NCBI GenBank assembly: GCA_039186435.1 | Contig: JBCDAA010000002.1 | Span: forward strand, 2,248-66,247 | Source of the DNA: Myxococcota bacterium | Lineage (GTDB): Bacteria > Myxococcota_A > Polyangia > Polyangiales > Houyiibacteriaceae | Length of the DNA stretch: 64,000 bases | Direction of reading: 5' to 3' | Part shown: one piece after another, positions 3,224-43,136 of the stretch | How the letters are laid out: each line of letters begins with the position of its first letter | How positions within the stretch are numbered: the stretch's first letter is position 1 | Translations under genes and position numbers: made by a program | The notes under the pieces: generated by a model | The model's database searches: none | Told to the model about the DNA's origin: nothing | Seen by the model: only the letters and a program-made list of their open reading frames with translations

Positions 3224-4535
3224 CGCTTGACGCGCGAAGCGGCAATTCGTCGCGGTCGCGCAGCGGAACAATCCACGCCTTGGGTGCAAAACCATCCGAA
3301 ACGCGACTCAGGTCAACCTCGGGGTCGATCAATTGCTGGCCGGGGCGTCCGTTGAGAGACGCCCACGCGTCCGCGCGAACCTCGACCTCACCACGTCCTT
3401 CTTCATTCCATCGATCTCTCAAGTAGTGCGCGAAACTTAAGATCAGGTCGGGCTGCGTTGGCACCATGCGCAGCTGAAGGGGCGTGAGGAACTCGCGCGG
3501 ATGCACCGTCGTTTCGCCGCGTTCGCTGCGCACGAGAAAATCCACCTGCCCAACCTTCTCCATGAGCATCACGTTCCAGGCGAAGCGATAGCCCTGCTCG
3601 TGCCAGCAGCGGTCGCCCCCGTAGAAGTGCTGCCGCAGCGGAAGCAAAAGCTGAAGGGCGAAGTGCACGCCGAGGAGTGCAAGGGCCGGGCGAGAAAGCG
3701 TGGACGGTTTGACCGCGACCGACGGCGTGGGGATGCGCTTCACGAAGCGTCGTGGCCAGCTCGGATCAAGAAAGAGCGACGCCGCAATCGTCATCAAGAG
3801 CGGAAAGATCCCGATCGGAAAGAGCAGGCCGGTCACGAGGTGGAAAACGATCACTGCAGCGAAGGCGAGGGCGCGCGTTCGTTTCCAGAGAAGCGCGAAG
3901 GGCACAAGCAGATCGAAGAGCATGCCGGCCCAGCTCATCGCAAAGGCGAGCCAAGGTTCATCCATGACCGGCCCGACAATCGGGGCGTCCGAGTAGCGGG
4001 CGAGCCACGTCCCGAGCGGTTCGGCGCGAAGGAGCCAGTCCTCACGAATCTTCGCAGCGCCCGCAAAGACGTAGACGAGCCCAATTTGAAGTCGGAGCAC
4101 ACGGAGCGGCCAGCGGGGGATGGGAGCGGAGCTCTTGCGACGCGCATCGAGCGAGCCGGCGTTGCCGAGGGGCATGAAGAAGAGCAGCGCCGCTAGCACG
4201 CTGACGAGGTAGTAGTGATTGAGATAGTTCGTGCGGTCGATCAGCTCGACGTAGGTAAACGAGACAAAGAAGAGGGCGACGCTGAGGCGATAGCGATAGC
4301 CGGCCGCGATGCCGAGGGCGGAGATCCCAATGACGCCAAAGAGCATGTGCATGCCCACCGGCCCAAGGGGCTGGATGAACTCGAGCCCCGGGTAGGGGAA
4401 CGTGATCGCCGGGGCGATGTAGAGGTCGTGTACCCACCCTTCGAGCTCGTAGCGAAGGACGTTGAACGCCATCGCCAACCCGAAGAGCACCCGAAATGCG
4501 ATGAGCGACGCCGGATCGTGGCGCGGAGCGGTCAC
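3213..4535 (-). CDS. HTTM domain membrane protein (vitamin-K-dependent gamma-carboxylase-like)
   Basis: 440-aa polytopic membrane protein. The N-terminal LIAFRVLFGLAMAFNVLRY...FPYPGLEFI...ELIDRTNYLNHYYLVSVLA layout matches the HTTM domain as I recall it. Confidence 0.75.
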   Translation of the reverse strand: MTAPRHDPASLIAFRVLFGLAMAFNVLRYELEGWVHDLYIAPAITFPYPGLEFIQPLGPVGMHMLFGVIGISALGIAAGYRYRLSVALFFVSFTYVELIDRTNYLNHYYLVSVLAALLFFMPLGNAGSLDARRKSSAPIPRWPLRVLRLQIGLVYVFAGAAKIREDWLLRAEPLGTWLARYSDAPIVGPVMDEPWLAFAMSWAGMLFDLLVPFALLWKRTRALAFAAVIVFHLVTGLLFPIGIFPLLMTIAASLFLDPSWPRRFVKRIPTPSVAVKPSTLSRPALALLGVHFALQLLLPLRQHFYGGDRCWHEQGYRFAWNVMLMEKVGQVDFLVRSERGETTVHPREFLTPLQLRMVPTQPDLILSFAHYLRDRWNEEGRGEVEVRADAWASLNGRPGQQLIDPEVDLSRVSDGFAPKAWIVPLRDRDELPLRASSDGR

Positions 4536-4545
4536 TAGACGTGCT

Positions 4546-5619
4546 CTAGTCGCCGTCGGTCGGATTGAACGTCACCGTCACCGAGAGCGCCCCTGCGACC
4601 TCCGTCGAGAGGAACCGTTGGAGGTCGCGGATTGCGTCGTACGCAGCGTCGACGTCGCCCGGCGCCATGGTGATCGCGTCTCCTAGGGACGTGGGCTCCA
4701 GCGCTTCGAGTCGCGCGATGGCGGTGTCGATCCCCTCGGTCACCTGCGGGTCGAGCTCCGGTCGGCGAGAGAGCAACCAGTCACGAATGCCGACTCCATC
4801 GACGCCGTTGAAGTCGCCGCTGTAGACGTTGCGAACGCCGCGGAGAGCATCGATGGCGTCACCGAGCGAGCGCTCCGAGAAGGGCGCCTCGAGGAGCGTG
4901 AGATCGGGGACTCGATCGTTGCGGCGACCCTGGGGCTTTCCGACCTTGAGCTCGCGCACGTTTTCGATCGTAAAGACCATTTGGTCGAAGACGACGCTCG
5001 CAGCAGCGAAGACACTTCGATAGGGCGTCGTTCCGTTGACAAGGGCTCCGCCGTGGTCGCCGCCTTCGGACGCCCAGGCGTCGACGTATTCCCCGGCTTG
5101 GCGGTGAAGATGCGCGGTCAGAGCGAGGGCATACTCGCAGCGGCGAGGCTCGGCTTGAAGCGCGGCGAGGGGATCGTCCGGGGAAAAGAGTAGGTAGCCG
5201 AGGGCGGGAAAGCCCTTCGCGCCGCTTCCCATTCCGTCGAGGGCTTCCACGCTAAGCGGAGCGCTGTCCGCGAGGACGTCGTCGACAGTGGGCGTTCGCG
5301 CCGGCCAGAAGTCGACGGTGGGCCCAAGGCGCAGCGGGTTGTCCGTGTGCGGTCCAAAGGAAAAGGGCTCGGCTTGCTTGAGCGGCGCCTTGGCGGCGCC
5401 GAATGCGTCCCGAAGTGCTGCGAATCCGGCTTCGTCGGGCGCCGCGCAGAACGCTTCAGTCGTCTGCTGGAGCGCTTCGGTCTGCACCACGAAGTCTTGG
5501 TAGGTGGGAAGGAAGACCGTGTCCGTCATCGACTGGAGCATCGCGGAACGATCGAAATTGTCGGTCGTGCCGCCATCGCTGCAGGAGAGAAGGACGAACG
5601 CTAAAAGCACGCGGTTCAT
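4546..5619 (-). CDS. imelysin-like (M75 / IrpA-like) lipoprotein
   Basis: Internal ATG 5619 gives MNRVLLAFVLLSCSDGG and a 4-nt ATGA overlap with the upstream stop. The LPTYQDFVVQTEAL...AFCAAP...LKQAEPFSFGPH segment resembles imelysin-fold proteins. Confidence 0.7.
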   Translation of the reverse strand: MNRVLLAFVLLSCSDGGTTDNFDRSAMLQSMTDTVFLPTYQDFVVQTEALQQTTEAFCAAPDEAGFAALRDAFGAAKAPLKQAEPFSFGPHTDNPLRLGPTVDFWPARTPTVDDVLADSAPLSVEALDGMGSGAKGFPALGYLLFSPDDPLAALQAEPRRCEYALALTAHLHRQAGEYVDAWASEGGDHGGALVNGTTPYRSVFAAASVVFDQMVFTIENVRELKVGKPQGRRNDRVPDLTLLEAPFSERSLGDAIDALRGVRNVYSGDFNGVDGVGIRDWLLSRRPELDPQVTEGIDTAIARLEALEPTSLGDAITMAPGDVDAAYDAIRDLQRFLSTEVAGALSVTVTFNPTDGD

Positions 5620-6989
5620 AGAGACTCCAAAAAGGCGATCAACCGCGCGCGGTCTGCTTCCGAAAGGGCGCGGAATGCCTCGCGCGCTTCCTCTGCTTCT
5701 CCGCCGTGCCAGAGGATCGCCTCGGCGAAGCCGCGCGCTCGCCCATCGTGGAGGAGGTTCTGATGACCGTTGACCGACTCGAGGTAGCCGAGGCCCCAGA
5801 GCGGCGGCGTTCGCCACTCCTGTCCATCCGCTTCAAACACCGGGCGCGCATCGGCGAGGTCGGGGCCCATGTCGTGCAAAAGCAGATCGGTGTACGGCCA
5901 AATCGATTGATCCGAGAGTTCTGGAAAGCCCTCGAGCGTTCCCGTTTGGTGGTTGGCCACGTGGCAGCCATCACAGCTGAGGCGCCGAAACACCGAGCGT
6001 CCGCGGAGTACCTCCGATTCGAGCGCGCGAGGGCGAAACGGGGGCGCGAGGGTGCGACTGTAGAACGAGACCTTCTCGAGAAGCTCGTCGTCAATTTCTG
6101 GGGCGCCACCGTTTGGGGCAGCCGCGCAGTCGTCTTGGCCGGGCGGGCAGTTCTCAACAGGGTGGAGCGACGACGTGATGCCGAGGTCGCCGAAGAACGC
6201 GCCCGCGGTTTGGTGGCGGACGGTCGGCTGCTCGCTCTTCCAGCCGAAACGACCGATCGCCATGGCGCCAGCCTCCGGATCCCAAACCCGCTGAATCTCT
6301 CCGCTGATCGCGTCGCCGTCCGCGTCATCCGGATCGGCCAGTTCTTCCAGACGGGCCGCCGGGATCGCCTCGAGCAGCCCGAGGCCGATCATGTGCGGCG
6401 CGACGCGTGGCGAAAACTGAATCTCCGATGAAAGGGGGCCGAACGAGAGGTCTTCGAAGACGTACTCCGGTCGCCGCAGCGAATAGGGCGTTCCGTCCTC
6501 GTACGCGCCCGCTTCTTCGGTCCATCGAACAAAGACGCGACCTTCGCCTGGAACTTCACGAACCCCGAAGGGCTGAAACTGGCCGCCATACGCAGGATCC
6601 GGAAGAGGTCCGCCGTGCTCGTCGACCCCCGGAATCGAAAGGCGAATCAACACGCTCGTCAGCGTCGCGTTATCCTCCGGTGGCGTGCCTCGCCCGTCGC
6701 GAAAATGACAGGTCGAACAGGCGGCTCCGTTGAAGGTCGGGCCCAGGCCATCGCGCGCGGTCGTTGTGGACGGGGCGGTGACCCAGGCCTGGCCGAAGAA
6801 GGCGTTGCCCGTAAAAAAAGGCCCACGCCGTTCCGAGCTCAGGTTGGAGGACGGAAAGGTGTAGGCCTGTGACCCGCTCACGAGCAGGAGCAACGTCGTG
6901 TCTCCGCCGGGTCGCTCTTCCCCTGGTTCGAGCTGCGGGTCGGATCCACAGGCAACCAGGAGCGCGAGGCAGGCGGAGACACGGGTCAT
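5616..6989 (-). CDS. di-haem cytochrome c, DUF1111 (thiol-oxidoreductase-like) lipoprotein
   Basis: Lipobox LALLVACGS. Two CXXCH motifs (CSTCH, CDGCH). Size and GLGPTFNGAAC context are typical of DUF1111 proteins that accompany imelysins. Confidence 0.8.
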   Translation of the reverse strand: MTRVSACLALLVACGSDPQLEPGEERPGGDTTLLLLVSGSQAYTFPSSNLSSERRGPFFTGNAFFGQAWVTAPSTTTARDGLGPTFNGAACSTCHFRDGRGTPPEDNATLTSVLIRLSIPGVDEHGGPLPDPAYGGQFQPFGVREVPGEGRVFVRWTEEAGAYEDGTPYSLRRPEYVFEDLSFGPLSSEIQFSPRVAPHMIGLGLLEAIPAARLEELADPDDADGDAISGEIQRVWDPEAGAMAIGRFGWKSEQPTVRHQTAGAFFGDLGITSSLHPVENCPPGQDDCAAAPNGGAPEIDDELLEKVSFYSRTLAPPFRPRALESEVLRGRSVFRRLSCDGCHVANHQTGTLEGFPELSDQSIWPYTDLLLHDMGPDLADARPVFEADGQEWRTPPLWGLGYLESVNGHQNLLHDGRARGFAEAILWHGGEAEEAREAFRALSEADRARLIAFLESL

Positions 6990-6992
6990 GCG

Positions 6993-8160
6993 TTACTCAG
7001 GATTCGGGACGGTGAAGCCGAGCGCAAAGAAAACCTCGCTGAGCAGCATCTCCTGCTCGCGAAGCGAATCGATGAGCGCCTGAACACGCCCATTTCCTTC
7101 GGTGTTGCCCGGGGAGATCTCGAGATCGAAGGGGGGCTGAAGCGCGCGCGCAAGGTCCACGCTGGTCTGAATGCGCGTGCGGAGGTTGTCGGCGAGGGTC
7201 GGATCGAGCTCGCGCACGACGTCTTCGATGCTGGTGCCGCTCACGACCGAGCCGTCGATGCGGGTGTAGCGACCGAGGTAGATGTTCTGGACCCCGATGA
7301 CGTCGAAGAGCATGTCGTTGTGGGTGTTGTCGGAAAAGCAGCTGTGCTCCTCTTCCTGGTTGCCCGCGTCGAGGGCCGCCTGAAGACGCTCGCCGGCGGT
7401 CTCGAAGCCGCTGAGAACGATCATTCCCGTGAGAATGCGCTGGAGCGCGACGTCCTCGTCGACGGTCTCCATGTCCTGGCGGTAGTTCGACTGACCGGGC
7501 GCCCACGCGTCGACGAGATCCGAGAGGTTGCTCTCGAGAAGGTCGCCGGCGGTCGTAAGGTACTGCCCACGGCGGTCGGCGTTGTCGGCCGTTGAGAAGT
7601 CCTCGAAGGTGCGCTGGCCGGGCATCCGCATGCTCGGCTCGGTGAGGTCCTGGCCCCAGAGCAGGAACTCGATCGGATGCCAGCCGGCCGCCACGTCCGC
7701 GTCGCCGCCTTCGCCGTTGGCGCCGCTGATCGAATCGGCGGAAATCGTAAATCCGGTGTCGTTGACCCGGCCTGCGGTCGCATCGCCATCCACGTAGTCG
7801 ACGGTCTGCTCGTCCATGGGCCAGGCGTTGATGAGTCCTTCCGGGTCTCCGTCCATGCCGTCGATGGGGCCGTCGTAGAACCGGTACACCTCGGTCTGGA
7901 GGTAAGGCTCGCGGGCTTCAAGCCACACGTCCTTTGCCGCCTGCAGCGTATCTGCAGATGCGCCGTCGACGAGCGCCTGAAGTGCGGTGTTCATCCGCTG
8001 GATCTCCGTGAGGGAGTCCTGGTAGCTCGCGTGCACGATTTCGTTGTAGGTCTGAATCGCTGCCGCGGTCGTATCTGAGGATCCATCGCCGTCGTCGCCG
8101 CAGCTAAACGCCAGCAGGCTGAGACCCAAAGCCATCGTTCGCCTTGTCATTGTACTCTCC
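6993..8160 (-). CDS. imelysin family (M75, EfeO/IrpA-like) lipoprotein
   Basis: ATG 8160, preceded by AGGAGA, gives MTRRTMALGLSLLAFSCGDDG. The longer 8579 start adds an Arg-rich non-signal extension. There is a 3-nt gap to the next gene. Confidence 0.7.
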
Positions 8161-8164
8161 TGAA

Positions 8165-8189
8165 GAAATTGAAAATTGTTTTCAATTTC
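8165..8189. promoter_or_regulatory. perfect palindrome GAAATTGAAAA-TTG-TTTTCAATTTC, Fur-family (7-1-7-like) operator candidate
   Basis: 11-nt arms are exact reverse complements. The inner TGAAAAT-T-GTTTTCA resembles TGATAAT-N-ATTATCA. Lies 5 nt upstream of the imelysin operon start/SD. Confidence 0.6.
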
Positions 8190-8271
8190 GCCTTTCCTAC
8201 CAGGGAAAATCCTGAGTGCAATCGCTGTGTTGGGCCCCCGTGAGAAATCCCTCGAAGGATCTTGAGGTTTT

Positions 8272-8299
8272 TGAAAATCAATTTCATTAATGAGGTCAT
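8272..8299. promoter_or_regulatory. Fur-like box pair (TGAAAATCAATTTCA plus AATGAGGTCAT)
   Basis: 12/15 match to TGATAATCATTATCA by my count. Followed by an AATGA-N3-TCAT core that overlaps the ATG of the small ORF. Confidence 0.55.
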
Positions 8300-8528
8300 G
8301 CCCAAGCGACACTCGTTGGCCCGCAATTCTTTCTGCCGAATCGATCAGCTCTGCGGCTGTGGTCGAGTCATCGAGGTTTCCGTGGGGGCCTTCTCTTTGC
8401 GCTTCGACGCCGGGTCGCTGCGAAAGCTCGGCAACACGATCAACGAGGCGCTGAGCAAGCTCGAACGTGAGTCTGAAGAAGCGGCGTTGCTCCTCGACGT
8501 GAAGCCAGCGCCACGAGGGCAGGCATGA
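8298..8528 (+). CDS. candidate small protein (76 aa), unknown function
   Basis: The ATG overlaps the end of a Fur-like site. Third-position GC is coding-like. Sequence is MPKRHSLARNSFCRIDQLCGCG...VSVGAFSLRFDAGSLRKLGNTINEAL. No family recognised. Confidence 0.35.
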   Translation: MPKRHSLARNSFCRIDQLCGCGRVIEVSVGAFSLRFDAGSLRKLGNTINEALSKLERESEEAALLLDVKPAPRGQA

Positions 8529-8680
8529 ACGCCGCGCACGTTGCCCACTTCGAACTGGACGGTGACGTGCGCTCTCCAACTCGCTCGCCCATACTGGCAG
8601 CGGTGGGTAGTGGAGCTGGCGTGGGTTCTACGCGCTGCGGGCAACGCGTTTCTCCGCTTGAACACCCCCGATGATCTCGA

Positions 8681-10810
8681 ATGAGAGCCAACGACCGAAG
8701 CGCGCAACCGGTTGCGCGGCATAGAGCAGTTCTCGCGTTCACCCTGTGGGCGTCTGCGGCTCCGTTCACTTCGGCGCAGGATACGGAAGCGGAAGACGAG
8801 TTCACCCTTGATGAGCCGGGGGAACTCACTCTCGACGACGCTGGGGATATCCAGCTTGAGGGCGACCTTTCGGAGGACATGGATGACCTCATGCTCCGCA
8901 CGGTTGTCGTTACGGGGACGCGACGCGAGCAACCTCTTGAAGACCTTCCCGTCGCGGTTGAGGTCATCACTCAAGAAGAGATCGATCGCTCGGGCGCGGA
9001 GACCCTCGCGGAGCTCCTTGAAGAACGTGCCGGGCTTCAGACCTTCAACGCGTTTCGAGGGCAGGGCGTTCAGCTTCGCGGCCTAGAGCCGGAGCACACC
9101 CTGATTCTTGTTGATGGTGAGCGCACGATTGGCCGCATTGACGGCACCTTGGATCTCACCCGGTGGCAGCTCGAAGATGTCGAGCGGGTTGAGATTGCCC
9201 GTGGCTCGGCGTCCGCGCTTTGGGGAAGCGACGCGCTCGCAGGGGTCATCAACATCATTCCGCGCCGCGGTCAGGAGGGCTGGACCGCGTCGGCAAGAGC
9301 CACGTACGGCTACCAAGATCGGCGTCGAAGCAACCGGCGCTCGAACTTTGAGGGCGGACCGCGTATCGACGACGGAGAGGACCTCCCCGACGACAGCTAC
9401 GGCGGAACCTACGACCTTGTGGGACGCCTCGGGTACGGCACCCAGCGCGCTGGCGGAACGGTTTTCCTTGGCTACCACCGCCTCGACGGCTTTGACCTCG
9501 ACCCGCGCGATGGAGCCACGAACGCGCCGGATACCGAAACGATCACCGCCGGTCTTTCGGGGTGGGCGAAGTTCGGGCCCACAACGCTCCGACTTCGATC
9601 TGAGATCCTCCATCGCGACGACGTTATTTTTGAAGCGCGTGGGCCACGGCTGATCCGCGAGCGTCTCAACCGAACCGACACCGCGAACGTCAGTCTCACC
9701 CCGGTCATCGACTTCGACCGCGGACAGCTCACGATGCGGGTGGCGTACTCCCGTTTCCGCGATCAGTTTCTCCGGCGGATTGTCGGCGAAGAGCAGATCG
9801 ACCCCACGACGATCACCACCGAGCAGCTGGGTCAGCTTCAAGGGCGGTACGTGCACTCGTTTAACGACGCGCACGTTTTCACCATTGGCTACGACACCTC
9901 CCTTGAGACGCTTCGAACGCCTCGCCTTCAGCGCACCGGAACGCGCGCCCGCCTCGCGCCCTATGTTCAGCATGAATGGACTGTGTCGGAGGAGCCCTAC
10001 GTGGCCGTGGTTCCCGGCATTCGTCTCGACGCGGACAGCTGGTTCGGTACGGCCGTCTCGCCAAAGGTCGCGGTACGGGTCGACCCCCACGAGAAGCTCG
10101 TCTTGCGCGCGTCGGGCGGACGAGGCTTTCGTGCACCGGACTTCCGGGAACTTCTGCTTCAGTTCACCGACAACGAGAGCCTCGGCTACATCGTGTTTGG
10201 GAACCCAGACCTAGAGCCCGAGACCAGCTGGAGCGTGGATGGCGGTGCCGAGCTGCGTCTTGGCCGCGCTTGGCTCGGCGTGACCGGGTACGCGACCTAC
10301 GTCGACGACCTCATCACGGTAGACCTCTTCGAGGTGGACGGCGCGGTTTCCCGCTTTGGCTACGTGAATGTCGGAAGCGCACGGACTCGCGGCCTTGAGG
10401 CTCAGGCTCGCTTCGCTCCCCTCCGCGGCGGGGATCATCGTTTTCGCATCGACGCCTCGTACACCTTTCTCGATGCGGACGACCGCACCAACAACCGACC
10501 CCTTCCCGGTCGCGCGCGGCACGCGGGAACGCTTCACCTTCGCTATCAACATCAGCCCTCTGGCATCAGCGCCCTCTGGCGGTCGCGACTCTCGGGCGAG
10601 CGCATCTTCTTCGATGGCGACGAGCGGATTGAGGCGGAGCCCTTTCTCTCGCTGGATCTGCGCCTAGAAAAGAACTTTGCCGGTGACCGGTTCCGTATCT
10701 TCGTCGGCGTCGACAACGTACTCAACAACGGCGGCACGTTTCTCACGACCCGCCCGCGAACATTTTGGTTCGGCGTCGCCGCCCGGCGCCGAGCGGAGGA
10801 ACAAGAATAA
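8681..10810 (+). CDS. TonB-dependent outer-membrane receptor
   Basis: Signal peptide ending AAPFTSAQ, an acidic linker, a plug domain (VVVTGTRREQPLEDLPVAVEVITQEEIDRSGAETLAELL), and a ~550-aa barrel region. Confidence 0.9.
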   Translation: MRANDRSAQPVARHRAVLAFTLWASAAPFTSAQDTEAEDEFTLDEPGELTLDDAGDIQLEGDLSEDMDDLMLRTVVVTGTRREQPLEDLPVAVEVITQEEIDRSGAETLAELLEERAGLQTFNAFRGQGVQLRGLEPEHTLILVDGERTIGRIDGTLDLTRWQLEDVERVEIARGSASALWGSDALAGVINIIPRRGQEGWTASARATYGYQDRRRSNRRSNFEGGPRIDDGEDLPDDSYGGTYDLVGRLGYGTQRAGGTVFLGYHRLDGFDLDPRDGATNAPDTETITAGLSGWAKFGPTTLRLRSEILHRDDVIFEARGPRLIRERLNRTDTANVSLTPVIDFDRGQLTMRVAYSRFRDQFLRRIVGEEQIDPTTITTEQLGQLQGRYVHSFNDAHVFTIGYDTSLETLRTPRLQRTGTRARLAPYVQHEWTVSEEPYVAVVPGIRLDADSWFGTAVSPKVAVRVDPHEKLVLRASGGRGFRAPDFRELLLQFTDNESLGYIVFGNPDLEPETSWSVDGGAELRLGRAWLGVTGYATYVDDLITVDLFEVDGAVSRFGYVNVGSARTRGLEAQARFAPLRGGDHRFRIDASYTFLDADDRTNNRPLPGRARHAGTLHLRYQHQPSGISALWRSRLSGERIFFDGDERIEAEPFLSLDLRLEKNFAGDRFRIFVGVDNVLNNGGTFLTTRPRTFWFGVAARRRAEEQE

Positions 10811-12420
10811 TGCGTCGTTCTCTTTTCTTTTCCCTAGCGCTTCTTCTCGCTTGCGATGATCTCGGCAGCAGCCCGGTCGATTCGGGTGCCGATCCTGACG
10901 CCGGCACGGACGACGCCGGCGAGGTCGATGCCGGTGCGAGCGAACCGGTGCAGCACACCGACATCGGCAACGGCGTTACCGAGACCCTCGTCGACGGGAC
11001 CGACACGCGGCGTTGGCTGGCTCTCGATCTCGACAACGGCGGCGCTGTTCTCGATGTGAGCATCACCGAGGACACCGCGTGGGATCTTGCGATTCAGCGC
11101 TTCGCGTATCGCACGAACGGCGGCGCGGGAGGTCCCGGCAACGTGCGGGTCGCGTTCCGGGACGACGTGACCTTCGAGGCGGCGACCCAGGCTCCCGAGG
11201 TGGGCTGGACGCAGGATCAGCCCGCTGAGGATTCGATGATCCCGGACGATGTTCCGATGGGCGAAGAGGTCCCCACCACGGTCATCTCCCACGGTGAAGA
11301 TCCGTGGTTCAACTACAACCCGATGACGCACGTGCTGACGCCGAAGGAGCGTGTCTACTTCATCGAAACGAGTGACCGAGCCTACGTTGCGCTTCAGCCG
11401 GTCGACTACTACTCGCCGGAGACGGGGGACTCGGGGTATCCCGCGTTCCGCTGGAAGATGGTCGACGCGCCGGACGGCGTGCTGCCGGGCTTTGATGTCG
11501 ATGCCTCCTCGCGTGACACCTGGGTCTACCTGAACCTCAGTGGGGAGGTCGTCACCGTCGAGAACGAGGCGACTGACCCGTGGGATCTTGCGATCCAGCG
11601 CACGGCGATTCGCACGAACGGTGGTGTGAGCGGCCCGGGGGTTGGCGGTGCTCGCGAGGCGACCGAGACCTGGGAAGTCCTCACGGAGACCACAACCGTG
11701 GGCTTTGTCGAAGACTCCCTTCTTCCGCTTCCCGGCCCTCCAGGATCTGGCGAGGCGCCCGGAAACTCCGCGCTGGCGACCTGGTTCGACTACGAGGAGT
11801 CCACGCGAACCGTTTCGGCGCGAGCGAACGCGGCGTTCGTTGTACGAGGTGCCGCGGGCGGCTACAGCAAGCTTCGCGTCCTCGCCTGGGACGACGGCGT
11901 GTACCGTCTCGAGATCGAGCCGATTGCGCGCGTGGTCGACACCCGCAGCGCAAGTATCGACGCATCGTCGACCGACGTGTGGGCGTACTTCAGCTTCCGG
12001 CAGGGCGAGCTCGTCGAGGTTTCGAGCGCGTCGGATGACCCGTCCTGGGACATCGGCTTTCAACGCACCGCGATCACGACGAACGGTGGAACGAGCGGCG
12101 AAGGGGAAGGTGCGTCCTACGAGGCGAGCGCCGCGTTTGATGAGATCGATGCAGTGGACGGAGAGTTTCTCGTCGACGAAGACCTGCCTCTGCCCGGACC
12201 GCCGGGGAGCGGAACGTTCTCCGGAAACCCCGCCCTCAACACCTGGTTCGACTACAACGAAAGCACCCGCGAAGTGAGCGTGCGCGACACGGCCTTTGTG
12301 GTCCGCACGGCGGATGGCGGTTTCGTCAAGCTCCAGGTAGAAGCCTGGGACGACGGTAACTACACGCTTCGCTGGGCCTACGCGGGCGCGGGCGGAGCTC
12401 GCTTCGGAGACGACGAATGA
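10810..12420 (+). CDS. lipoprotein with three tandem HmuY-like domains
   Basis: The ATG overlaps the receptor stop (TAATG). Lipobox LALLLACDD. Three repeats each carry WD(L/I)(A/G)(I/F)QR-x4-TNGG-x-(G/S)G-x-G and a later ...KL(R/Q)V(L/E)AWDDG... strand, the pattern I associate with the HmuY family. Confidence 0.65.
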   Translation: MRRSLFFSLALLLACDDLGSSPVDSGADPDAGTDDAGEVDAGASEPVQHTDIGNGVTETLVDGTDTRRWLALDLDNGGAVLDVSITEDTAWDLAIQRFAYRTNGGAGGPGNVRVAFRDDVTFEAATQAPEVGWTQDQPAEDSMIPDDVPMGEEVPTTVISHGEDPWFNYNPMTHVLTPKERVYFIETSDRAYVALQPVDYYSPETGDSGYPAFRWKMVDAPDGVLPGFDVDASSRDTWVYLNLSGEVVTVENEATDPWDLAIQRTAIRTNGGVSGPGVGGAREATETWEVLTETTTVGFVEDSLLPLPGPPGSGEAPGNSALATWFDYEESTRTVSARANAAFVVRGAAGGYSKLRVLAWDDGVYRLEIEPIARVVDTRSASIDASSTDVWAYFSFRQGELVEVSSASDDPSWDIGFQRTAITTNGGTSGEGEGASYEASAAFDEIDAVDGEFLVDEDLPLPGPPGSGTFSGNPALNTWFDYNESTREVSVRDTAFVVRTADGGFVKLQVEAWDDGNYTLRWAYAGAGGARFGDDE

Positions 12421-14429
12421 ATCGTACCCTTGCCCTTTGCGTACTCCTCGGTTGTGGCGGATCGCCTTCGCCATCGGCCTCGACGCCGACGACGACCGAG
12501 CCCTCGGTGACGGTAGAAGACACCCCTGCAGAAGAAACGGCACAGATGATCGCTGCGGCGGATGTCGTGGTTGATGGCGGCTTGCCGCTACTCCCTCGTG
12601 GGCTGACCAGCTTTGGCCTCGCCGAGCACGAGGGCGCGCTCTACCTCCTTGGAGGCTTCTTTGGTGAGCCCCATCGCTACGTCGCAGAGGACCAGTCGGC
12701 GGCGCTGTACGTCCTGCGTCCCGGGATGCGCGAATGGGAAGAGGGACCCGGTCTCGATCGAGGGATGCAGAGCGTTGCTCTCGTCAACGTGCAAAACGCG
12801 CTTCACCGCATTGGCGGTATGCAGGTTCGTGACGGTGGGCTTCACTCGGTTGCGGAGCACGCGCGCCTCGACCCCGCGGCCGGTCGATGGACGACTCTTC
12901 CTGCGCTTCCGGAGCCGCGTTCGTCCCACGACGCCATTGCTCACGGCGACTCGCTTTGGGTGGTGGGTGGATGGCGCCTGTCCGGTGCGCCGCGCGAAGG
13001 AACGTTCGCAGAGACAGCGCTCCGCTTTGATGGCGAGACCTGGCATGCGACGCCGGCTCCCCTTCGGCGTCGAGCCCTTGGACTCGCGGCCACCGAGAAT
13101 CATCTCGTTGCGGTCGGCGGGCTCGCCGCAGAAGGCGTCTCTCAGCAGGTCGACATTCTCGACGTGAGCACGGGCGAGTGGTCTCGCGGCCCCGATCTGC
13201 CCGGAAACCGCACGGGTTTTGGCATCGCGGTGGTGGGCGTCGGCGACTCGGTGTACGCGAGCGGCTTCGACGGTGTTCTTCGTCGACTACGCGTCGGTGC
13301 GGACGCCTGGGAAGACGTCGGAACCATCGCCTTTCCGCGGTTCTTTCACCGCATGGTTCACGTCGATGGAGGCTTCGCGGTCGTGGGCGGGATCGGAGGA
13401 ATGCACACTTCCGGCCGAACCCGCGTGGTGGAGACCGTCCCCGATTCCGGCGGAGGCGCGCTGACGATCGCGGTGCCTTGGGACGCGGAAGCGAAGAACC
13501 GTCAGGGAACCTTCCTCGCCGGCGATCACCTCTACTTCTTCGGCGGCAACAACAGCCTCGGGCAGCATGACTTCGAGGTGGAGAACTTCGTGCGCGAAGG
13601 ATGGCGGCTCCACGTGCCCTCGCTCTCCTTCGAGCAGGTCGCGGATTATCCGGCGGCGCGCCAGACGATGACGACTCTTGTCGTCCCCTCCGAAGACCCG
13701 CGGGAAGAGCCGACGGTGATCTCGCTGGCGGGCTTCGGTCACGAGGGTCCGACGGCCGGGGAAGAGACCGTCGCGAAAACGCACCCGGAAATCTTTCGCT
13801 ACAGCGTGTCGGAGAACGCCTGGAGTCCGATGCCTTCGCTTCCGGTTTCGCGCAGTCAGCTCGGCGCGTTCTTTCACAACGGTGACCTCGTCGTGATGGG
13901 CGGCCTCGACTACGACCCGACCCGTCCGGAAAACGACCAGTTCCGCCATCTCACGGAGATCGTGTCGCTTACCGCGAACGGGACGGAGTTCCAGACGCTT
14001 GAGCAGGCCCTTCCCGGGCCGCGACGTGCCTTTGGCGGCGCCTACCTCAACGGGCGCTACTACCTGATCGGCGGCATGCGCGAAGGGTTTCAGCTCGTGG
14101 ATGGCTGCGTTGCCTTCGATCCCGCCGAGTCATCGTTCGACGAGGTCGCCTGTCCTCAGCGCACCCGTCTGAACCCGCGCCTCGTGGCGGTCGGCGAGCA
14201 ACTCGTCCTCGTGGGTGGTACCACGCGGCTCGAAAACGGTGAGCTTGGGGAGGACCGCAGCATCGAGGTGTACAACCCCGCGACCAATCGCTGGCGAGCT
14301 CTCGAGACGGAGCTTCCGTTCACGCCCAAGCATGCGCAGGCTTTCGACTATCACGGTGGTCTGCTCGTGGTTTCGACTCACAACGACGAGCGGCGTCTGC
14401 GACTCGCGTTCATTCCGGTGGCCGAGTGA
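12417..14429 (+). CDS. Kelch-repeat (probably double beta-propeller) lipoprotein
   Basis: ATGA overlap with the upstream gene. Lipobox LCVLLGCGG. About twelve blade signatures, including LYLLGGF, LHRIGGM, LWVVGGW, LVAVGGL, FAVVGGI, LYFFGGN, LVVMGGL, YYLIGGM and LVLVGGT. Confidence 0.75.
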   Translation: MNRTLALCVLLGCGGSPSPSASTPTTTEPSVTVEDTPAEETAQMIAAADVVVDGGLPLLPRGLTSFGLAEHEGALYLLGGFFGEPHRYVAEDQSAALYVLRPGMREWEEGPGLDRGMQSVALVNVQNALHRIGGMQVRDGGLHSVAEHARLDPAAGRWTTLPALPEPRSSHDAIAHGDSLWVVGGWRLSGAPREGTFAETALRFDGETWHATPAPLRRRALGLAATENHLVAVGGLAAEGVSQQVDILDVSTGEWSRGPDLPGNRTGFGIAVVGVGDSVYASGFDGVLRRLRVGADAWEDVGTIAFPRFFHRMVHVDGGFAVVGGIGGMHTSGRTRVVETVPDSGGGALTIAVPWDAEAKNRQGTFLAGDHLYFFGGNNSLGQHDFEVENFVREGWRLHVPSLSFEQVADYPAARQTMTTLVVPSEDPREEPTVISLAGFGHEGPTAGEETVAKTHPEIFRYSVSENAWSPMPSLPVSRSQLGAFFHNGDLVVMGGLDYDPTRPENDQFRHLTEIVSLTANGTEFQTLEQALPGPRRAFGGAYLNGRYYLIGGMREGFQLVDGCVAFDPAESSFDEVACPQRTRLNPRLVAVGEQLVLVGGTTRLENGELGEDRSIEVYNPATNRWRALETELPFTPKHAQAFDYHGGLLVVSTHNDERRLRLAFIPVAE

Positions 14430-14788
14430 TGCGAAACGCTCGCGCCCACGATCCAAACGGTCGCCGTGTCGTCCACCGACACGGCTCATGGGAAGTGCGC
14501 GCGGGCGTCGACCTTCAGCTGTGGGATCCGGAGCGAGAGGTTTCGCTCTTGCTTCCCTCCCCTTACGTCGCGGAGTTCTTCGAGCTTCTCACCCCGACCG
14601 GGTGGCCTCTTGAGATCCACGACTACGGGGTCCTTGTTCATCTCGCCGAGTCGCGCTTTCAGATCACGCTCCCGCCTTGGGCTCACCTTCGCGCGTGGCT
14701 CCGTTGGCACATTCGTACCGCGAGGATCTCATGCGAACGCGCAGAACTCGCATCGGTCCACCTGCTTCAACCCTCGGCTCTTCGATGA
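14429..14788 (+). CDS. small conserved hypothetical protein (paralog of 50353-50688)
   Basis: The ATG overlaps the Kelch stop (TGATG). Shares HDP(N/G), (S/P)WE(V/L)R, (L/I)LLPSP and WLRW segments, in the same order, with the product of 50353-50688. No signal peptide. Confidence 0.6.
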   Translation: MRNARAHDPNGRRVVHRHGSWEVRAGVDLQLWDPEREVSLLLPSPYVAEFFELLTPTGWPLEIHDYGVLVHLAESRFQITLPPWAHLRAWLRWHIRTARISCERAELASVHLLQPSALR

Positions 14789-16299
14789 CCGATCAGGAGC
14801 ACCAAGAGCAAGAGAGCGCTCTCGCCCCCTCCGGCGCTGCTGCACCCGCAGCCGCCGTCGGACGTTGGTGTCCCCGCATCCGTCGCCCCGGCGTCCTCGG
14901 CTGCCCCGGCGTCCTCGGCTGCCCCAGCGTCGTCTTCTGCCCCAGCGTCGGGTCCGACGCCGGCATCTTCGGGTTCAGGAATTCCCGCAAGGCGTCGAAG
15001 GGCGGGCGCAGGCTGAACGAGGCCAAAACCGTAGAGGTCATCGTGGCCCGTCGCGTCCGGCGTCGCGAAGAACGACTGGGCCGCAGTTTCGTTGAGCAGC
15101 GTTCCGATCTCGGCGCTTGTCACGCTGGGGTCGAGACTGATCAGCAGCCCCGCGATGCCTGCCACGATCGGGCAGGCCGACGATGTGCCCCCGAAAGTCG
15201 AGGTGTAGTCGTCCGGGGAAGCGCCGTCTGGCCCGGCGATGTCGGCCGTGTTCGTTCCCGTCGGAGCGACCACATCCACCGCGTCGCCGAGGTTGCTGAA
15301 CTGCACACCCTCGTCGAAGTTGTTCGTCCCCCCCACGCCGATCACACCATCGACCGCCGCGAGTTCGTTGGCCGCGACGACTCGGCTCTCGTTTCCGATC
15401 GCAAACACAACGACTCCCCCAAGGCCGTCGCGTCCTTCGGCGATCACGGTTTCGATGATCGCGCCGAGCGCCGGCGGAACAGGGATCGGATCCCGAAATC
15501 CCCAGCTGTTCGAGACGATGTCCGCGTCGACGTCCAAGGCGAATTCGAAGGCTCGAACATCCGCGGAGAGCGGCACGGCCTCGCCGGTTCCGGTAAGGAG
15601 GCGCACGCAGCGAAGCCGGCACTCGGGGCAGCTTCCTGCGACACCGAGGTTGTTGCTCGTGGACGCGGCGACCAGTCCGGCGCACGCCGTACCGTGTTCG
15701 TTGCTTCGCGTTTCCGGCCGGTACGTGGGATCCATGTCGCTGTCGACGACGTCGAGGCCCGAGTCCATTTTCTCGACCAGGTCCGGGTGGGTCAGATCAC
15801 ATCCGTTGTCGACAACGACGATGTTGACCTCGGGGTCGCCGTCCTCGATCGCCCAGGCCTCTTCCATATCCAGTCGGTCGTAGAACCACTGACCCGAGTA
15901 TCGCGGGTCGTTGGGCGGCAGCTCGACATCGTGCAGGATGTGGGGAATCTGAATGTCCGGCATGACGCTTCGCAGCCGTCCCGACCGAACGTGGTGAGCA
16001 AGGCGAAGGGCGAGGTCGAGACCGTCTTCGTTCGTTCGGGTGCTGACGACCCGAAGGAGTGCGAGTCGTTCCGAAGCGACGGTGACGACACGGACCTCGA
16101 GGTCGTTGATCGCGTCGTTTCGGTCGTGGAGCCAAAGGAGCGCGTGCGCGTCCACGCCGACGGGGTGACCGTCCCAGCGAAGGCCGCTCGGGGTGCGCTC
16201 CACTTTGACGTACTTCTCGCCATCGTAGAGCGACTGCGCACTCGCTACGTTGGTGAGCAGCGTGCTTGCGAGCACCAGGCCCTTTAGGATTTTTCGCAT
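14767..16299 (-). CDS. secreted subtilisin-like serine protease (S8) with MYXO-CTERM-type tail
   Basis: ATG 16299 gives signal MRKILKGLVLASTLLTNVASAQ. Triad contexts are VVVDNGCDLTHPDL, HGTACAG and GGTSSACPIVAG. The C-terminus is GGCGCSSAGGGESALLLLVLLIGHRR. Confidence 0.85.
   Translation of the reverse strand: MRKILKGLVLASTLLTNVASAQSLYDGEKYVKVERTPSGLRWDGHPVGVDAHALLWLHDRNDAINDLEVRVVTVASERLALLRVVSTRTNEDGLDLALRLAHHVRSGRLRSVMPDIQIPHILHDVELPPNDPRYSGQWFYDRLDMEEAWAIEDGDPEVNIVVVDNGCDLTHPDLVEKMDSGLDVVDSDMDPTYRPETRSNEHGTACAGLVAASTSNNLGVAGSCPECRLRCVRLLTGTGEAVPLSADVRAFEFALDVDADIVSNSWGFRDPIPVPPALGAIIETVIAEGRDGLGGVVVFAIGNESRVVAANELAAVDGVIGVGGTNNFDEGVQFSNLGDAVDVVAPTGTNTADIAGPDGASPDDYTSTFGGTSSACPIVAGIAGLLISLDPSVTSAEIGTLLNETAAQSFFATPDATGHDDLYGFGLVQPAPALRRLAGIPEPEDAGVGPDAGAEDDAGAAEDAGAAEDAGATDAGTPTSDGGCGCSSAGGGESALLLLVLLIGHRRAEG
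14886..14957. repeat. 18-bp tandem repeat (2 exact + 2 diverged units) encoding the (AAEDAG)n linker of the S8 protease
   Basis: ccccggcgtcctcggctg occurs twice, followed by ccccagcgtc... units. Confidence 0.8.
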
Positions 16300-16339: not shown

Positions 16340-17140
16340 ATGAAGTACTTACTCACTCTCACACTCACGCTCAGTTTTGCCTGTGGCGATGATGACGGAA
16401 CTGATTTCGACGCCGGTGGCGGAACAGACGCGGGCGTGGACAGCGGCATGGTCGACACGGGCGTTGATGCAGCCCCGGAGGTTCGGTGCGAACCCACCTC
16501 GTCGGCATGTGTAGATGAGCAAATCGTTCAACTCGGCCTCTTTGACAACATTGCAGAAGGCGGCATCGAAAACGAGGACCTCGGCACGCACTGGCGGACG
16601 CGCATCGACGCGCGAGGTGGCGGGTTCATGACGTCGCAGTCCTACCTCTACCTGCGCTTCACGGACGGCGGGGCGGAGAAGCTGGAGCTCTCCGATGAGA
16701 CCGCGTTCGACTCGGGCGACTGGGACATGGCGTTTCGGCGCTTTGTGATGCGGCTCAACAGCGGCGTTTCCGGTCCCTCGTGTGTGGCCGCGGGCCGCAC
16801 CGCAGCGGACACCGACTTTGACACGTTGGCCGCGGTTCCAGACGGCCTCGCGTTCCGCACGGAGGAATACTACTCCACGCCGGACTGCAGCGTGGTTCCC
16901 GACGGATCCGGGCTCGGGAGTCCAGGCACCGCGCTGGCGAGCTACTGGACCTACCGCAGCTGTGTCGAAATGACCGGCAACGTTTACGTGGTTCAGCTCC
17001 CGTCGGGTCGTCACATCAAGCTCGAGGTCGAGACGTACTACACGCCGGAAGTTCAGGTCGCCTGCGACCGTGACGGGATGCTTCCGCCGGGACCTTCCGG
17101 CTCGGGCAACGTGCAGATCCTCTGGGCCTTCATCGACTGA
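16340..17140 (+). CDS. single-domain HmuY-like lipoprotein
   Basis: ATG 16340 gives MKYLLTLTLTLSFACGDDDG. Contains WDMAFRRFVMRLNSGVSGPS and a later YVVQLPSGRHIKLEVETYY strand, parallel to the repeats of 10810-12420. Confidence 0.6.
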   Translation: MKYLLTLTLTLSFACGDDDGTDFDAGGGTDAGVDSGMVDTGVDAAPEVRCEPTSSACVDEQIVQLGLFDNIAEGGIENEDLGTHWRTRIDARGGGFMTSQSYLYLRFTDGGAEKLELSDETAFDSGDWDMAFRRFVMRLNSGVSGPSCVAAGRTAADTDFDTLAAVPDGLAFRTEEYYSTPDCSVVPDGSGLGSPGTALASYWTYRSCVEMTGNVYVVQLPSGRHIKLEVETYYTPEVQVACDRDGMLPPGPSGSGNVQILWAFID

Positions 17141-17158
17141 ACCTTCATCGACTGAACC

Positions 17159-18634
17159 ATGCTGCGACACGCCGTCATCCTCATGGCCCTCGGCTGGGCC
17201 GCGATCGCGAACGCGGATCGTCCGGACACCCCCGGGACGATGGCGACGTTTCGTTTCGCCGAGGATGACGTCGTCGAGCGGGCAGACTTTGATCGCGTGC
17301 GTGTTCACTTCACGCGCTCGGGAGTGAACTCCGTCCCGGAAGCGGACATCGACGAGACCGGGGTTCCCGACTTCGTCGAGCTTGTGGGCACCAGCTACGA
17401 CGACGTTCTCACCGTCTACGCCAGCTGGGGGTTCCGTTTGCCACGAAGTGACGCTGACCTCGAGGACGACAACGGGGGCGACGAGCGCTTCGACGTCTAC
17501 CTGGTCGACTTCTTCGGCTCCGCCGACGGTTCGTTTCAAACGGACGCCTGTGATGGCGGCACCTGTATCGGCTACGCGGTCCAGGAAAACGACTTCGTCG
17601 GCTACGGCTACCCGAGTCTGGAGCGTGCGGTCGGAATCCTTTCGAGCCACGAGCTCTTTCATGCAGTTCAGGCGGCTTACGACGACGGACAGAACTCCGT
17701 CGTCGGCGAAGGGACCGCCGTGTGGGCGAGCGACCGCTTCAACCCGCGTTTCCGAGAGGTTCCCGCCTTCGCGCCTGGCTACTTCGAGCGCGCGGACCGA
17801 CCGATCGACCAGCCTCTCGTGGGTGCGGTCCTCGATGCCTTCGGCTACGGCGCATCGGTCTTCTTCACATTCCTGACCGAGCATCTTGGCGACGAAGATC
17901 TTGTGCTTCGTCTTTGGGAAGACTGCGTCGACGGCGCCCGCGGGGTGGAGGACCCGCAGTGGCTACCGGCGCTCATCGCGATGCTCGAGCGCGACTACGA
18001 CACTGAGTTCGAAACGATCTTTGTCGAGTTTGCGACCTGGAACTGGTTTACCGCCGGACGCGCAAATCCGGACCGCGCGTACGCCGAGGGGATTCGCTAC
18101 CCCGAGGTCAACATGCGCGACGCAACGTTGCCTTTTGAAGACGTACGCCCGCGGCACTTTCGAGCCGCGACACGCTACTACCGCTTCAGTGCGGGCGGGC
18201 GCGACGAGGTACGTGCGCGTCTGGTGGGTGATGGTGCAGCTGATCTTCGCCTTCGTCTGATCGATCTCGACACCGGCGCCCTGAGCGACGTTCGGGGTAC
18301 CGAGATCGCGGCACCAGGCGCGCCCTCCATGGCGCTCGCCATCATCAATCCTTCGCCGGCGGGTTCAAGCCGGCGCGCGACGCTTTGTCTCGGAACCGAG
18401 ATGGAAGTCGACCGTTGTGAACGTCTCCATGCGGAAGAGGACGACGCCTCCCTCGATGCCTCTTTCGATTCGTCTGTTGCTGACGCACATACACCCGACG
18501 CACGTGTCAGTGATGCAGGAGGGGGGGACACGGAACCAGGGTCCCCCGGTGGGGGTTGCTCCGCCGGGGGCTCTGGGAACGCGTTTTTTGGGTTTCTCGT
18601 GCTCGGGATTCTGTTGCGAAAGGAAGGGCCATGA
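17159..18634 (+). CDS. putative secreted HExxH metalloprotease with MYXO-CTERM-like tail
   Basis: Signal MLRHAVILMALGWAAIANA. HELFH motif (SSHELFHAVQAAYD). The C-terminus is GGGCSAGGSGNAFFGFLVLGILLRK. Confidence 0.65.
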   Translation: MLRHAVILMALGWAAIANADRPDTPGTMATFRFAEDDVVERADFDRVRVHFTRSGVNSVPEADIDETGVPDFVELVGTSYDDVLTVYASWGFRLPRSDADLEDDNGGDERFDVYLVDFFGSADGSFQTDACDGGTCIGYAVQENDFVGYGYPSLERAVGILSSHELFHAVQAAYDDGQNSVVGEGTAVWASDRFNPRFREVPAFAPGYFERADRPIDQPLVGAVLDAFGYGASVFFTFLTEHLGDEDLVLRLWEDCVDGARGVEDPQWLPALIAMLERDYDTEFETIFVEFATWNWFTAGRANPDRAYAEGIRYPEVNMRDATLPFEDVRPRHFRAATRYYRFSAGGRDEVRARLVGDGAADLRLRLIDLDTGALSDVRGTEIAAPGAPSMALAIINPSPAGSSRRATLCLGTEMEVDRCERLHAEEDDASLDASFDSSVADAHTPDARVSDAGGGDTEPGSPGGGCSAGGSGNAFFGFLVLGILLRKEGP

Positions 18635-21450: not shown

Positions 21451-21463
21451 CGCCGGAGATGTT

Positions 21464-21482
21464 GAAATTGACTTTCACTATC
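21464..21482. promoter_or_regulatory. Fur-like box GAAATTGACTTTCACTATC
   Basis: 13/19 to the consensus. Lies in the divergent gap between the RCC1 lipoprotein and the methyltransferase operon. Confidence 0.55.
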
Positions 21483-43115: not shown

Positions 43116-43136
43116 CACACCGCGAGGTTAGCATAT

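Follow-up and report, generated by a model that had tools for sequence, protein, structure and literature searches.

A TonB-dependent receptor, three-domain HmuY and double-Kelch operon of Myxococcota as a probable Fur-repressed haem acquisition module

HmuY proteins have so far been studied almost only as single-domain proteins of host-associated Bacteroidota. In the best-known case, that of Porphyromonas gingivalis, the gene for a lipoprotein of HmuY fold adjoins that of the TonB-dependent receptor HmuR, and gingipains cooperate with HmuY. The present analysis concerns a 64-kb window of a Myxococcota contig (JBCDAA010000002.1), the whole stretch of DNA to which the positions given below refer unless another locus is named, as does the Rfam scan. 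On its plus strand, five open reading frames (ORFs) at 8298–14788 (76, 709, 536, 670 and 119 aa) include the genes for a TonB-dependent receptor, a lipoprotein with three tandem HmuY domains (HmuY3) and a double-Kelch lipoprotein. The locus is a variant of HmuY/HmuR-type haem acquisition that includes a functionally uncharacterised double-Kelch family, and the region probably constitutes a Fur-repressed, TonB-dependent outer-membrane module for the acquisition of haem or a closely related iron-tetrapyrrole.

Several described systems bear on this locus. BtuG of Bacteroides is a surface lipoprotein consisting of a single seven-bladed, non-Kelch beta-propeller, which caps the TonB-dependent transporter BtuB in a system with a cobalamin riboswitch. 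The axial ligands of P. gingivalis HmuY are His134 and His166, while its Arg79 forms a salt bridge with a haem propionate (PMC2671838). Across the HmuY family the axial ligands are His-His, His-Met, Met-Met or none; BfrB of Bacteroides fragilis binds haem without coordinating its iron, and its paralogue BfrC binds neither haem nor protoporphyrin IX (PPIX) (PMC12106395). For Myxococcota, HmuY-HmuR pairs in Plesiocystis, Stigmatella and Myxococcus received a one-sentence mention in 2009 (PMC2671838), and a six-gene hemin-transport regulon of Myxococcus xanthus (MXAN_1316-1321) was co-induced with siderophore and iron-acquisition genes in iron-scavenging cells (PMC3986340). Imelysin-like proteins have been implicated in iron uptake (PMC3143127), and the delta-proteobacterial FUR consensus is a 17-bp palindrome, WTGAAAATNATTTTCAW (PMC545781).

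The operon and its promoter region contain the following features.
8169–8185, no strand assigned: Fur box 1, TTGAAAATTGTTTTCAA, a 16/17 match to the consensus, nearer the divergent imelysin gene
8271–8287, no strand assigned: Fur box 2, TTGAAAATCAATTTCAT, a 16/17 match, whose end lies 11 nt upstream of the 8298 ATG
8298–8528, plus strand: sORF1, 76 aa, conserved, first gene of the operon
8681–10810, plus strand: TonB-dependent receptor, 709 aa, with Pfam Plug and barrel matches
10810–12420, plus strand: HmuY3 lipoprotein, 536 aa, three HmuY domains, Cys15
about 10948–11484, 11488–11940 and 11941–12417, plus strand: the tandem HmuY domains of HmuY3
12417–14429, plus strand: double-Kelch lipoprotein, 670 aa, matching Pfam Kelch families, Cys13
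14429–14788, plus strand: ORF4, 119 aa, of a rare uncharacterised family

An earlier note on this DNA had described four translationally coupled genes starting at 8298. The four products hold, and the three start/stop overlaps are all present as quoted: the receptor stop (TAA, 10808–10810) overlaps the HmuY3 start (ATG, 10810–10812) in TAATG at 10808–10812, the HmuY3 stop (TGA, 12418–12420) overlaps the Kelch start (ATG, 12417–12419) in ATGA at 12417–12420, and the Kelch stop (TGA, 14427–14429) overlaps the ORF4 start (ATG, 14429–14431) in TGATG at 14427–14431. The receptor ORF, however, begins at 8681, and the ATG at 8298 opens a separate 76-aa ORF in a different frame, so that the stretch comprises five genes. 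A 49-aa ORF at 8525–8674 was rejected as a gene for its lack of conservation and its non-coding composition. Nor do the stated positions, 8298–14788, take in the whole unit: the cluster extends on one side to two proteases with another HmuY lipoprotein between them, and on the other to a divergent operon. Identical proteins were found in an NCBI Myxococcota metagenome-assembled genome (MAG), in keeping with the proposed myxobacterial origin; there the second of the four products is already named 'HmuY family protein'.

That the repeats of this second protein are HmuY-like, as had been proposed from motifs, is borne out for all three. HmuY3 matches the Pfam HmuY family (PF14064) over three separate stretches (E = 1.2e-48; 165.6 bits against a cut-off of 27), and a profile derived from the repeats retrieved BfrB (8b6a, 2e-23) and P. 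gingivalis HmuY (3h8t, 1e-20) from the PDB. The AlphaFold2 (AF2) model, built with 81 homologues, is all-beta, with a predicted local distance difference test score (pLDDT) of 92.2 and a predicted template-modelling score (pTM) of 0.79, and places a disordered linker of ~45 residues ahead of the domains. All 12 Foldseek matches in the PDB at E ≤ 0.001 were HmuY-family structures (target-normalised TM 0.59–0.80, BfrB reaching 0.80). As the Pfam and PDB profile matches and the predicted fold agree, membership of HmuY3 in the HmuY family and fold is established. The protein carries a lipobox, LLAC, with Cys15.

The HmuY3 family comprises at least 120 sequences, mostly of 500–570 aa, from Sandaracinus, Polyangiaceae, Stigmatella and other Myxococcota, plus Pseudobacteriovorax; the residue counts that follow come from 81 family sequences. 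The three WD(L/I)(A/G)..R..NGG strings read exactly as the earlier note quoted them; the KL(R/Q)V(L/E)AWDDG strand said to follow each is present in repeats 2 and 3, but repeat 1 has YVALQPVDYY instead. The WD..xxR strand reads WDLAIQR, WDLAIQR and WDIGFQR in repeats 1–3, and its Arg, the equivalent of HmuY Arg79, is conserved in 80/81, 64/81 and 59/81 sequences, respectively. P. gingivalis HmuY shares both the WD(M/L)A..R..N.G.SG strand and the Arg that binds the propionate. The family repeats also share a W-Y-D-Y-D-P-x-T-H motif on a predicted beta-hairpin, the His of which is near-invariant (80/81 in repeat 1, 77/81 in repeat 2, 65/81 in repeat 3). This His lies a few residues from HmuY His166 in the same loop, according to a hand registration via BfrB (HMMER left the loop unaligned). 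Compared with the P. gingivalis system, the gene order is reversed, the receptor preceding HmuY, three tandem domains stand in place of one, and control would be by a Fur box of delta-proteobacterial type.

The receptor consists of a signal peptide, an acidic linker, a TonB box (RTVVVTG), a plug (Pfam Plug, 1.3e-21) and a TonB-dependent barrel (3.2e-46). It is 34–36% identical to the receptors of the canonical haem operons L002, L008 and L009 (L numbers denote the loci retrieved for comparison), with which it has a FRAP/NPDL region in common. No His occurs between the two boxes of the FRAP/NPNL region in any receptor class, those of the canonical haem operons included, and the region is therefore uninformative as a test of specificity.

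Synteny was assessed by contig look-ups with the exact proteins and by a metagenome scan. Two kinds of locus emerged, canonical haem operons with distant HmuY3 homologues (37–42% identity) and Kelch-type loci with closer ones. In the former, the order of receptor followed by three-domain HmuY is the same as in the window, but the operons continue differently: in Stigmatella aurantiaca (CP002271) the two genes are followed by HemS/ChuX, a periplasmic binding protein (PBP), a FecCD permease and an ATP-binding cassette (ABC) ATPase, and in L008 and L009 by PBP-FecCD-ABC genes plus a PNPOx/HugZ-like gene, whereas the window continues with the double-Kelch gene and ORF4. Importer genes of this kind, present in L002, L008 and L009, do not follow the receptor-HmuY pair of the window. 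The MXAN_1316-1321 regulon is probably an operon of the Stigmatella type, with MXAN_1317 as the presumed HmuY3 homologue. In the Kelch-type loci L005 (a Sandaracinus MAG), L006 and L007, the HmuY3 homologues are 49–64% identical to that of the window, the Kelch gene lies downstream, and the genes are usually divergent from an operon of imelysin, di-haem oxidoreductase, imelysin and HTTM genes. Homologues of the ABC importer, HemS and HugZ were found, among the fetched loci, only in HmuY loci without Kelch, and at none of these fetched loci were both gene sets encoded after the receptor-HmuY pair. A scan of genome contigs with the single HmuY3 sequence yielded one distant Poribacteria locus. 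In L004 (Pseudobacteriovorax antillogorgiicola) a lone three-domain HmuY homologue (9964–11599) has a one-mismatch Fur box directly upstream and no adjacent receptor, the nearest being ~8 kb off on the opposite strand.

The Kelch protein matches several Pfam Kelch families at ~1e-26 in both halves and has a lipobox, LLGC, with Cys13; with these matches and that to PF14064, both families named in the earlier note were recovered by HMM search. The propeller of about 12 blades described there is resolved by a confident AF2 model (pLDDT 92.5, pTM 0.90) into two six-bladed propellers behind a disordered linker of ~40 aa. Foldseek returned only generic six-bladed Kelch domains (target-normalised TM 0.72–0.78), and sequence and fold searches of the PDB for a functional relative gave only eukaryotic KLHL/Keap1 and designed Kelch propellers. 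The family exceeds 300 proteins of very uniform length, similar to 670 aa, from Sandaracinus amylolyticus, Haliangium ochraceum, Plesiocystis pacifica, Paraliomyxa and many MAGs. Dozens of residues are invariant, including several His, Arg and Gln, and the motifs GN.SLGQHDFE.ENF, FPRFFHR and GGMREGFQLVD.C recur.

A metagenome scan with the Kelch family alignment gave 80 loci, 35 of which contain an ORF with one, two or three HmuY domains, lying within 320 bp of the Kelch gene in 34 of these 35. Where at least 3 kb of flank was available on both sides, HmuY accompanied Kelch genes of at least 40% identity in 14 of 15 loci and those below 40% in 3 of 8. The link also persists where the gene order has changed. 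At 7.194–7.216 Mb of CP011125, S. amylolyticus DSM 53668 has a Kelch gene that diverges from the receptor, a 558-aa HmuY, two genes of unknown function, imelysin and HTTM, while the P. pacifica Kelch gene adjoins a pair of HmuY genes together with those for a receptor and a 526-aa protein. The HmuY and Kelch genes overlap in L007 and are separated by 30 nt in L005 and 189 nt in L006. The gene link is hence conserved across L005–L007, both cultivated species and the metagenomic loci, whereas the earlier idea of an obligatorily co-translated Kelch protein does not stand, the genes of relatives being ~30 to 190 nt apart, divergent or rearranged. Judged on synteny, the linkage is real and conserved. 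Among Kelch homologues without HmuY, the only recurrent neighbour was a ~1000-aa ORF, seen at 7 loci; weak receptor matches turned up at several of the seven as well.

The 147-bp region between the divergent operons holds both Fur boxes, each with one mismatch to WTGAAAATNATTTTCAW. The window has seven sites at ≤3 mismatches against 0.07 expected. Boxes similar to box 1 occur at the matching position in L005 and L007, and box 2 is near-identical, just before the first start codon, in L005, L006, L007, L012 and L014, conserved within otherwise divergent GC-rich spacers; L013 has a more degenerate copy with >2 mismatches, outside the following count. All fetched loci together hold 42 sites at ≤2 mismatches per 1.06 Mb against 0.4 in shuffled sequence (about 100-fold enrichment), most of them immediately 5' to a receptor, HmuY or Kelch gene. 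A Fur-like box is also found upstream in L008, and Kelch genes without a HmuY neighbour have upstream Fur boxes as well. Rfam at gathering thresholds found no riboswitch in the whole window, and at E up to 10 gave a single spurious long non-coding RNA match in the leader (8050–8800), so that a leader riboswitch, for cobalamin or any other ligand, was rejected as far as these scans reach. Scans for promoter and terminator consensus sequences found no more matches than in shuffled sequence. On the comparative evidence of box conservation and enrichment, together with the missing riboswitch, control of the operon by iron through Fur appears well supported. In two closely related metagenomic loci, a direct repeat of ~100 bp (...GATCTCGAA.ACCAGGGATCTCCTGACGGGCCACGCGCTCGGGCGGCCGGCTG.GCGGCAAAA...), in two full copies and a third partial one, lies upstream of the Fur box and sORF1 (L012, about 400–700; L014, about 4640–4940).

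Two small genes frame the operon. sORF1 is 53–58% identical and in the same position, as first operon gene, in L005, L006, L012 and L014; it has the motif CGCGRVIEV..G..TLRFD and no signal peptide. It matched no Pfam or NCBIfam model, is labelled hypothetical protein AAGE52_00330 at NCBI, and retrieved only itself in a word-indexed homologue search. HemP/HmuP-type proteins hold a comparable position in other haem loci, and sORF1 might be a small regulator or chaperone. A copy of 30% identity adjoins the Kelch gene in L044. At the other end, ORF4 has the weakest coding signal (0.11 bits per codon against 0.29–0.62), no Pfam match and no counterpart in the closest syntenic loci, L005–L007. The reading of ORF4 as a spurious ORF, to which the weak codon score and the syntenic absence pointed, was rejected because an exhaustive HMMER search found 15 homologues among 1.84 billion representatives, with the signature HDP..R.V..G.WEVR...LQLW.PE..VS.L.PS (also given with LQLWHPE and LTPS), and because homologues directly follow Kelch genes in L092 (175–531, 4-nt overlap) and L042 (about 10965–11351). 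ORF4 is thus a real gene but only an occasional operon member: the fourth gene of the earlier description is present and coupled in the window, but membership is not regular.

The operon is flanked by the following genes.
3213–8150, minus strand: divergent operon as a whole, Pfam matches for all four genes
6993–8150, minus strand: imelysin lipoprotein (Pfam)
5616–6989, minus strand: di-haem oxidoreductase, DHOR (Pfam)
4546–5619, minus strand: second imelysin (Pfam)
3213–4535, minus strand: HTTM membrane protein (Pfam)
14767–16299, minus strand: subtilase (peptidase S8; Pfam Peptidase_S8), MYXO-CTERM-like tail
16340–17140, plus strand: HmuYs, single-domain HmuY-family lipoprotein (Pfam HmuY, 2.2e-9)
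17159–18634, plus strand: putative HExxH metalloprotease of the MXAN_6640 family (NCBIfam NF045524), signal peptide, MYXO-CTERM-like tail

The subtilase matches Peptidase_S8 at 4.6e-38 and a MYXO-CTERM domain at residues 547–571; it is 52% identical to a syntenic gene in L006, with further copies in L016, L017 and L022. HmuYs (38.1 bits to Pfam HmuY) has the lipobox SFAC and the motif WDMAFRRF. It shares 63% identity with its syntenic counterpart in L006, and 17 Kelch loci contain a homologue. The metalloprotease scores 211 bits to NF045524 (cut-off 140), with HELFH at residue 164 and a C-terminal tail GGGCSAGG...FLVLGILLRK. The pair of small HmuY and MXAN_6640 protease recurs in the Plesiocystis locus L011 and in 10 metagenomic Kelch loci. 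Both MYXO-CTERM-like proteases flank the HmuYs gene, and surface protease genes near a HmuY-receptor pair are a further likeness to P. gingivalis. Antisense ORFs (for example 16349–17884, minus strand) were discarded, their matches being shadows of opposite-strand genes. In L005 and L007 the complete set of imelysin, DHOR, imelysin and HTTM genes is likewise transcribed divergently from HmuY and Kelch, and some of these genes lie nearby in L010, L013, L017, L036, L041 and L089; in the window this operon shares the Fur-box promoter region with the HmuY operon. The second imelysin ATG (5617–5619) overlaps the DHOR stop codon. HTTM is a vitamin-K-carboxylase-like membrane protein.

Taken as a haem acquisition module, the locus could work as follows. 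Under iron limitation, Fur would leave the two operators between the divergent operons, and sORF1, receptor, HmuY3, double-Kelch protein and ORF4 would then be expressed. HmuY3, presumably lipid-anchored and flexibly tethered, would act as a haemophore-like capture protein and pass its ligand to the adjacent receptor, as HmuY does to HmuR. Domains 2 and 3 of HmuY3 would probably hold the porphyrin ring with no coordination of iron, in the manner of BfrB, or else serve as spacers or docking domains. The double-Kelch protein would be a dedicated extracytoplasmic partner of the receptor/HmuY pair, most likely a co-receptor or a platform on which haem sources or the receptor complex could dock. 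The MYXO-CTERM subtilase, the HExxH protease and the second HmuY lipoprotein plausibly free haem from haemoproteins at the cell surface, and the divergent imelysin/di-haem/HTTM operon would handle iron in the periplasm.

Several observations weigh against such a module. The family has a single conserved His per domain, two of the three being lost in the window protein: it is kept only in repeat 1 (His174, nt 11329, counted from the ATG at 10810) and gives way to Arg333 in repeat 2 and Arg487 in repeat 3. Neither a His nor a Met conserved in the three-domain family aligns with HmuY His134, and neither His134 nor His166 is conserved at the aligned positions, so that the check for axial ligands proposed in the earlier note found the HmuY ligand positions not kept and one family His in repeat 1 only; P. 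gingivalis HmuY differs accordingly. The best structural match, BfrB, is a haem binder without iron coordination. All NCBIfam subfamily models score the receptor far below cut-off, and the best partial score is to TonB-B12 (173 bits; cut-off 600). The examined parts of the window yielded neither a haem ABC importer nor a gene for haem degradation, none of the fetched Kelch-type loci contains haem ABC, HemS or HugZ-like genes, and the HmuS (CobN-like) and HmuTUV genes that follow in the Bacteroidota hmu operon (hmuYRSTUV) were not seen in the window, where a double-Kelch gene follows instead. The Fur boxes themselves are consensus matches only, and the functions proposed here for the Kelch protein are all inferred. 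The loss of His from repeats 2 and 3 is compatible with HmuY membership because BfrB and BfrC also lack ligands; BfrB, like these repeats, has no iron-coordinating His or Met, but it is a single-domain protein of Bacteroidota, and repeat 1 and most family members have a conserved His.

Some of these points would also fit the import of another tetrapyrrole or macrocycle (for instance a porphyrin lacking its metal, a corrinoid or a product of chlorophyll breakdown), with the Kelch protein as a high-affinity binder in the manner of BtuG. The replacement of His by Arg, the match to a protein that binds the porphyrin ring without coordinating iron, the TonB-B12 score, the missing haem importer and oxygenase, and the many invariant polar Kelch residues, as expected of a specific binding site, all suit this possibility. 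In BtuG-BtuB a beta-propeller lipoprotein gene likewise adjoins that of a TonB-dependent receptor as a conserved accessory. The window differs from that system in its two six-bladed Kelch propellers, its Fur boxes and its lack of a riboswitch. With no cobalamin riboswitch in leader or window, an iron signal on the operon and its homologues, homologous HmuY3 proteins and receptors in canonical haem operons, all three His retained in most close relatives and a TonB-B12 score far under its cut-off, we consider the import of such a compound unlikely. The ligand, left open between haem, another tetrapyrrole and a corrinoid in the earlier note, is narrowed towards haem or iron rather than corrinoid by the operon context of relatives, the Fur boxes and the lack of a cobalamin riboswitch, although two of the three domains are without the conserved His.

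A second possibility is that haem reaches the periplasm and that the Kelch protein, together with imelysin, DHOR and HTTM, releases its iron there and only iron is imported, in place of the HmuTUV/haem-oxygenase route and by analogy with systems of the EfeUOB type, whose EfeB is a peroxidase and whose EfeO includes an imelysin domain. This would account for the finding that the Kelch-type and the ABC/HemS/HugZ-type gene sets never occur together downstream of receptor-HmuY pairs in the fetched loci, and it draws on the promoter shared with the imelysin/DHOR/HTTM operon here and in L005 and L007, on its proximity in several other loci and on the implication of imelysin-like proteins in iron uptake cited above. 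The divergent operon encodes two lipoproteins of the imelysin (M75) type plus an oxidoreductase that contains haem, a kind of combination implicated in iron uptake (PMC3143127), but has DHOR di-haem and HTTM proteins instead of an EfeU/Ftr1 permease or a DyP peroxidase. The imelysin cluster is moreover missing from many long-flanked Kelch-HmuY loci, an ABC importer could sit elsewhere in the genome, of which the analysis covered 64 kb, and the Kelch protein showed no catalytic motif and no recognised enzyme fold. On balance an extraction of iron outside the cytoplasm seems improbable; a surface co-receptor or docking platform is only slightly favoured over a periplasmic role for the Kelch protein, a role that would explain Kelch-type loci without ABC and haem-degrading genes.

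That Kelch and ORF4 are functionally unlinked neighbours, juxtaposed by chance or in one lineage, is very improbable: the absence of ORF4 from the closest syntenic loci, the lack of conserved HmuY-Kelch coupling and the mostly HmuY-less neighbourhoods of Kelch homologues below 40% identity speak for it, but Kelch-HmuY adjacency survives rearrangement in Sandaracinaceae, Nannocystaceae and many metagenomic lineages, HmuY is present in 14 of the 15 well-flanked loci with closer Kelch genes, HmuY-less Kelch genes have Fur boxes, ORF4 homologues directly follow Kelch genes in two unrelated contigs, and for the Kelch gene the synteny statistics largely refute it.

Returning to a haem acquisition module, a broader proposal may be made, though we hold it to be rather doubtful: double-Kelch lipoproteins of ~670 aa could be an unrecognised, Fur-regulated accessory class for TonB-dependent receptors, marking an alternative branch of the Myxococcota HmuY systems in which haem or iron is processed outside the cytoplasm, alongside imelysin/di-haem/HTTM proteins and MYXO-CTERM surface proteases, as opposed to classical HmuTUV import and opening by HemS/HugZ.

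The earlier note had regarded the arrangement as undescribed, which, within the literature searched, stands for the Kelch pairing; the HmuY identity, on the other hand, was already annotated, and myxobacterial HmuY-HmuR pairs had been mentioned in 2009 (PMC2671838). Literature searches on HmuY with Kelch returned only unrelated work, and those on Kelch with TonB-dependent receptors and haem nothing relevant; no description was found of a multi-domain HmuY, a conserved Kelch partner, the exclusion of ABC and haem-degradation genes or the Fur boxes, nor of a link between an imelysin-type system and a HmuY/receptor operon. Free-living predatory Myxococcota hold a large family (more than 100 sequences) of two- and three-domain HmuY lipoproteins. 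Once solved, the function of the Kelch protein would bring to light either a novel mode by which sources of haem dock at TonB-dependent receptors or an equally novel path, outside the cytoplasm, by which iron is gained from haem; it also bears on the recovery of iron from lysed prey by predatory bacteria. Surface proteases freeing haem would fit a predatory lifestyle. The system is testable because the cultivated S. amylolyticus and P. pacifica carry a Kelch-type locus.

Further observations concern the remainder of the window. About 1.2 kb past the metalloprotease gene, an RCC1-repeat beta-propeller with Ig-like domains is encoded on the minus strand (19807–21450); no RCC1-repeat gene was seen in the related loci. 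A second TonB-dependent receptor-like protein (29267–31765, 832 aa) has a TonB_C-like domain N-terminal to the plug; its gene is followed by that of a DUF4397 protein and then by an ABC system of MacB type (33491–35435). A PepSY-associated transmembrane protein is encoded at 47010–48623; this family is often iron-regulated, and the gene is a further hint of a stretch rich in iron acquisition. Additional Fur-box-like sites with 2–3 mismatches lie at 21462–21478, 21532–21548, 31873–31889, 43136–43152 and 50698–50714. Two of them lie on either side of position 21501, where a methyltransferase-like gene starts: one is in the spacer to the RCC1-repeat gene and the other ~30 nt inside the methyltransferase-like gene; another directly precedes the DUF4397 gene (31879), and one is ~10 nt upstream of a small minus-strand ORF (50353–50688).

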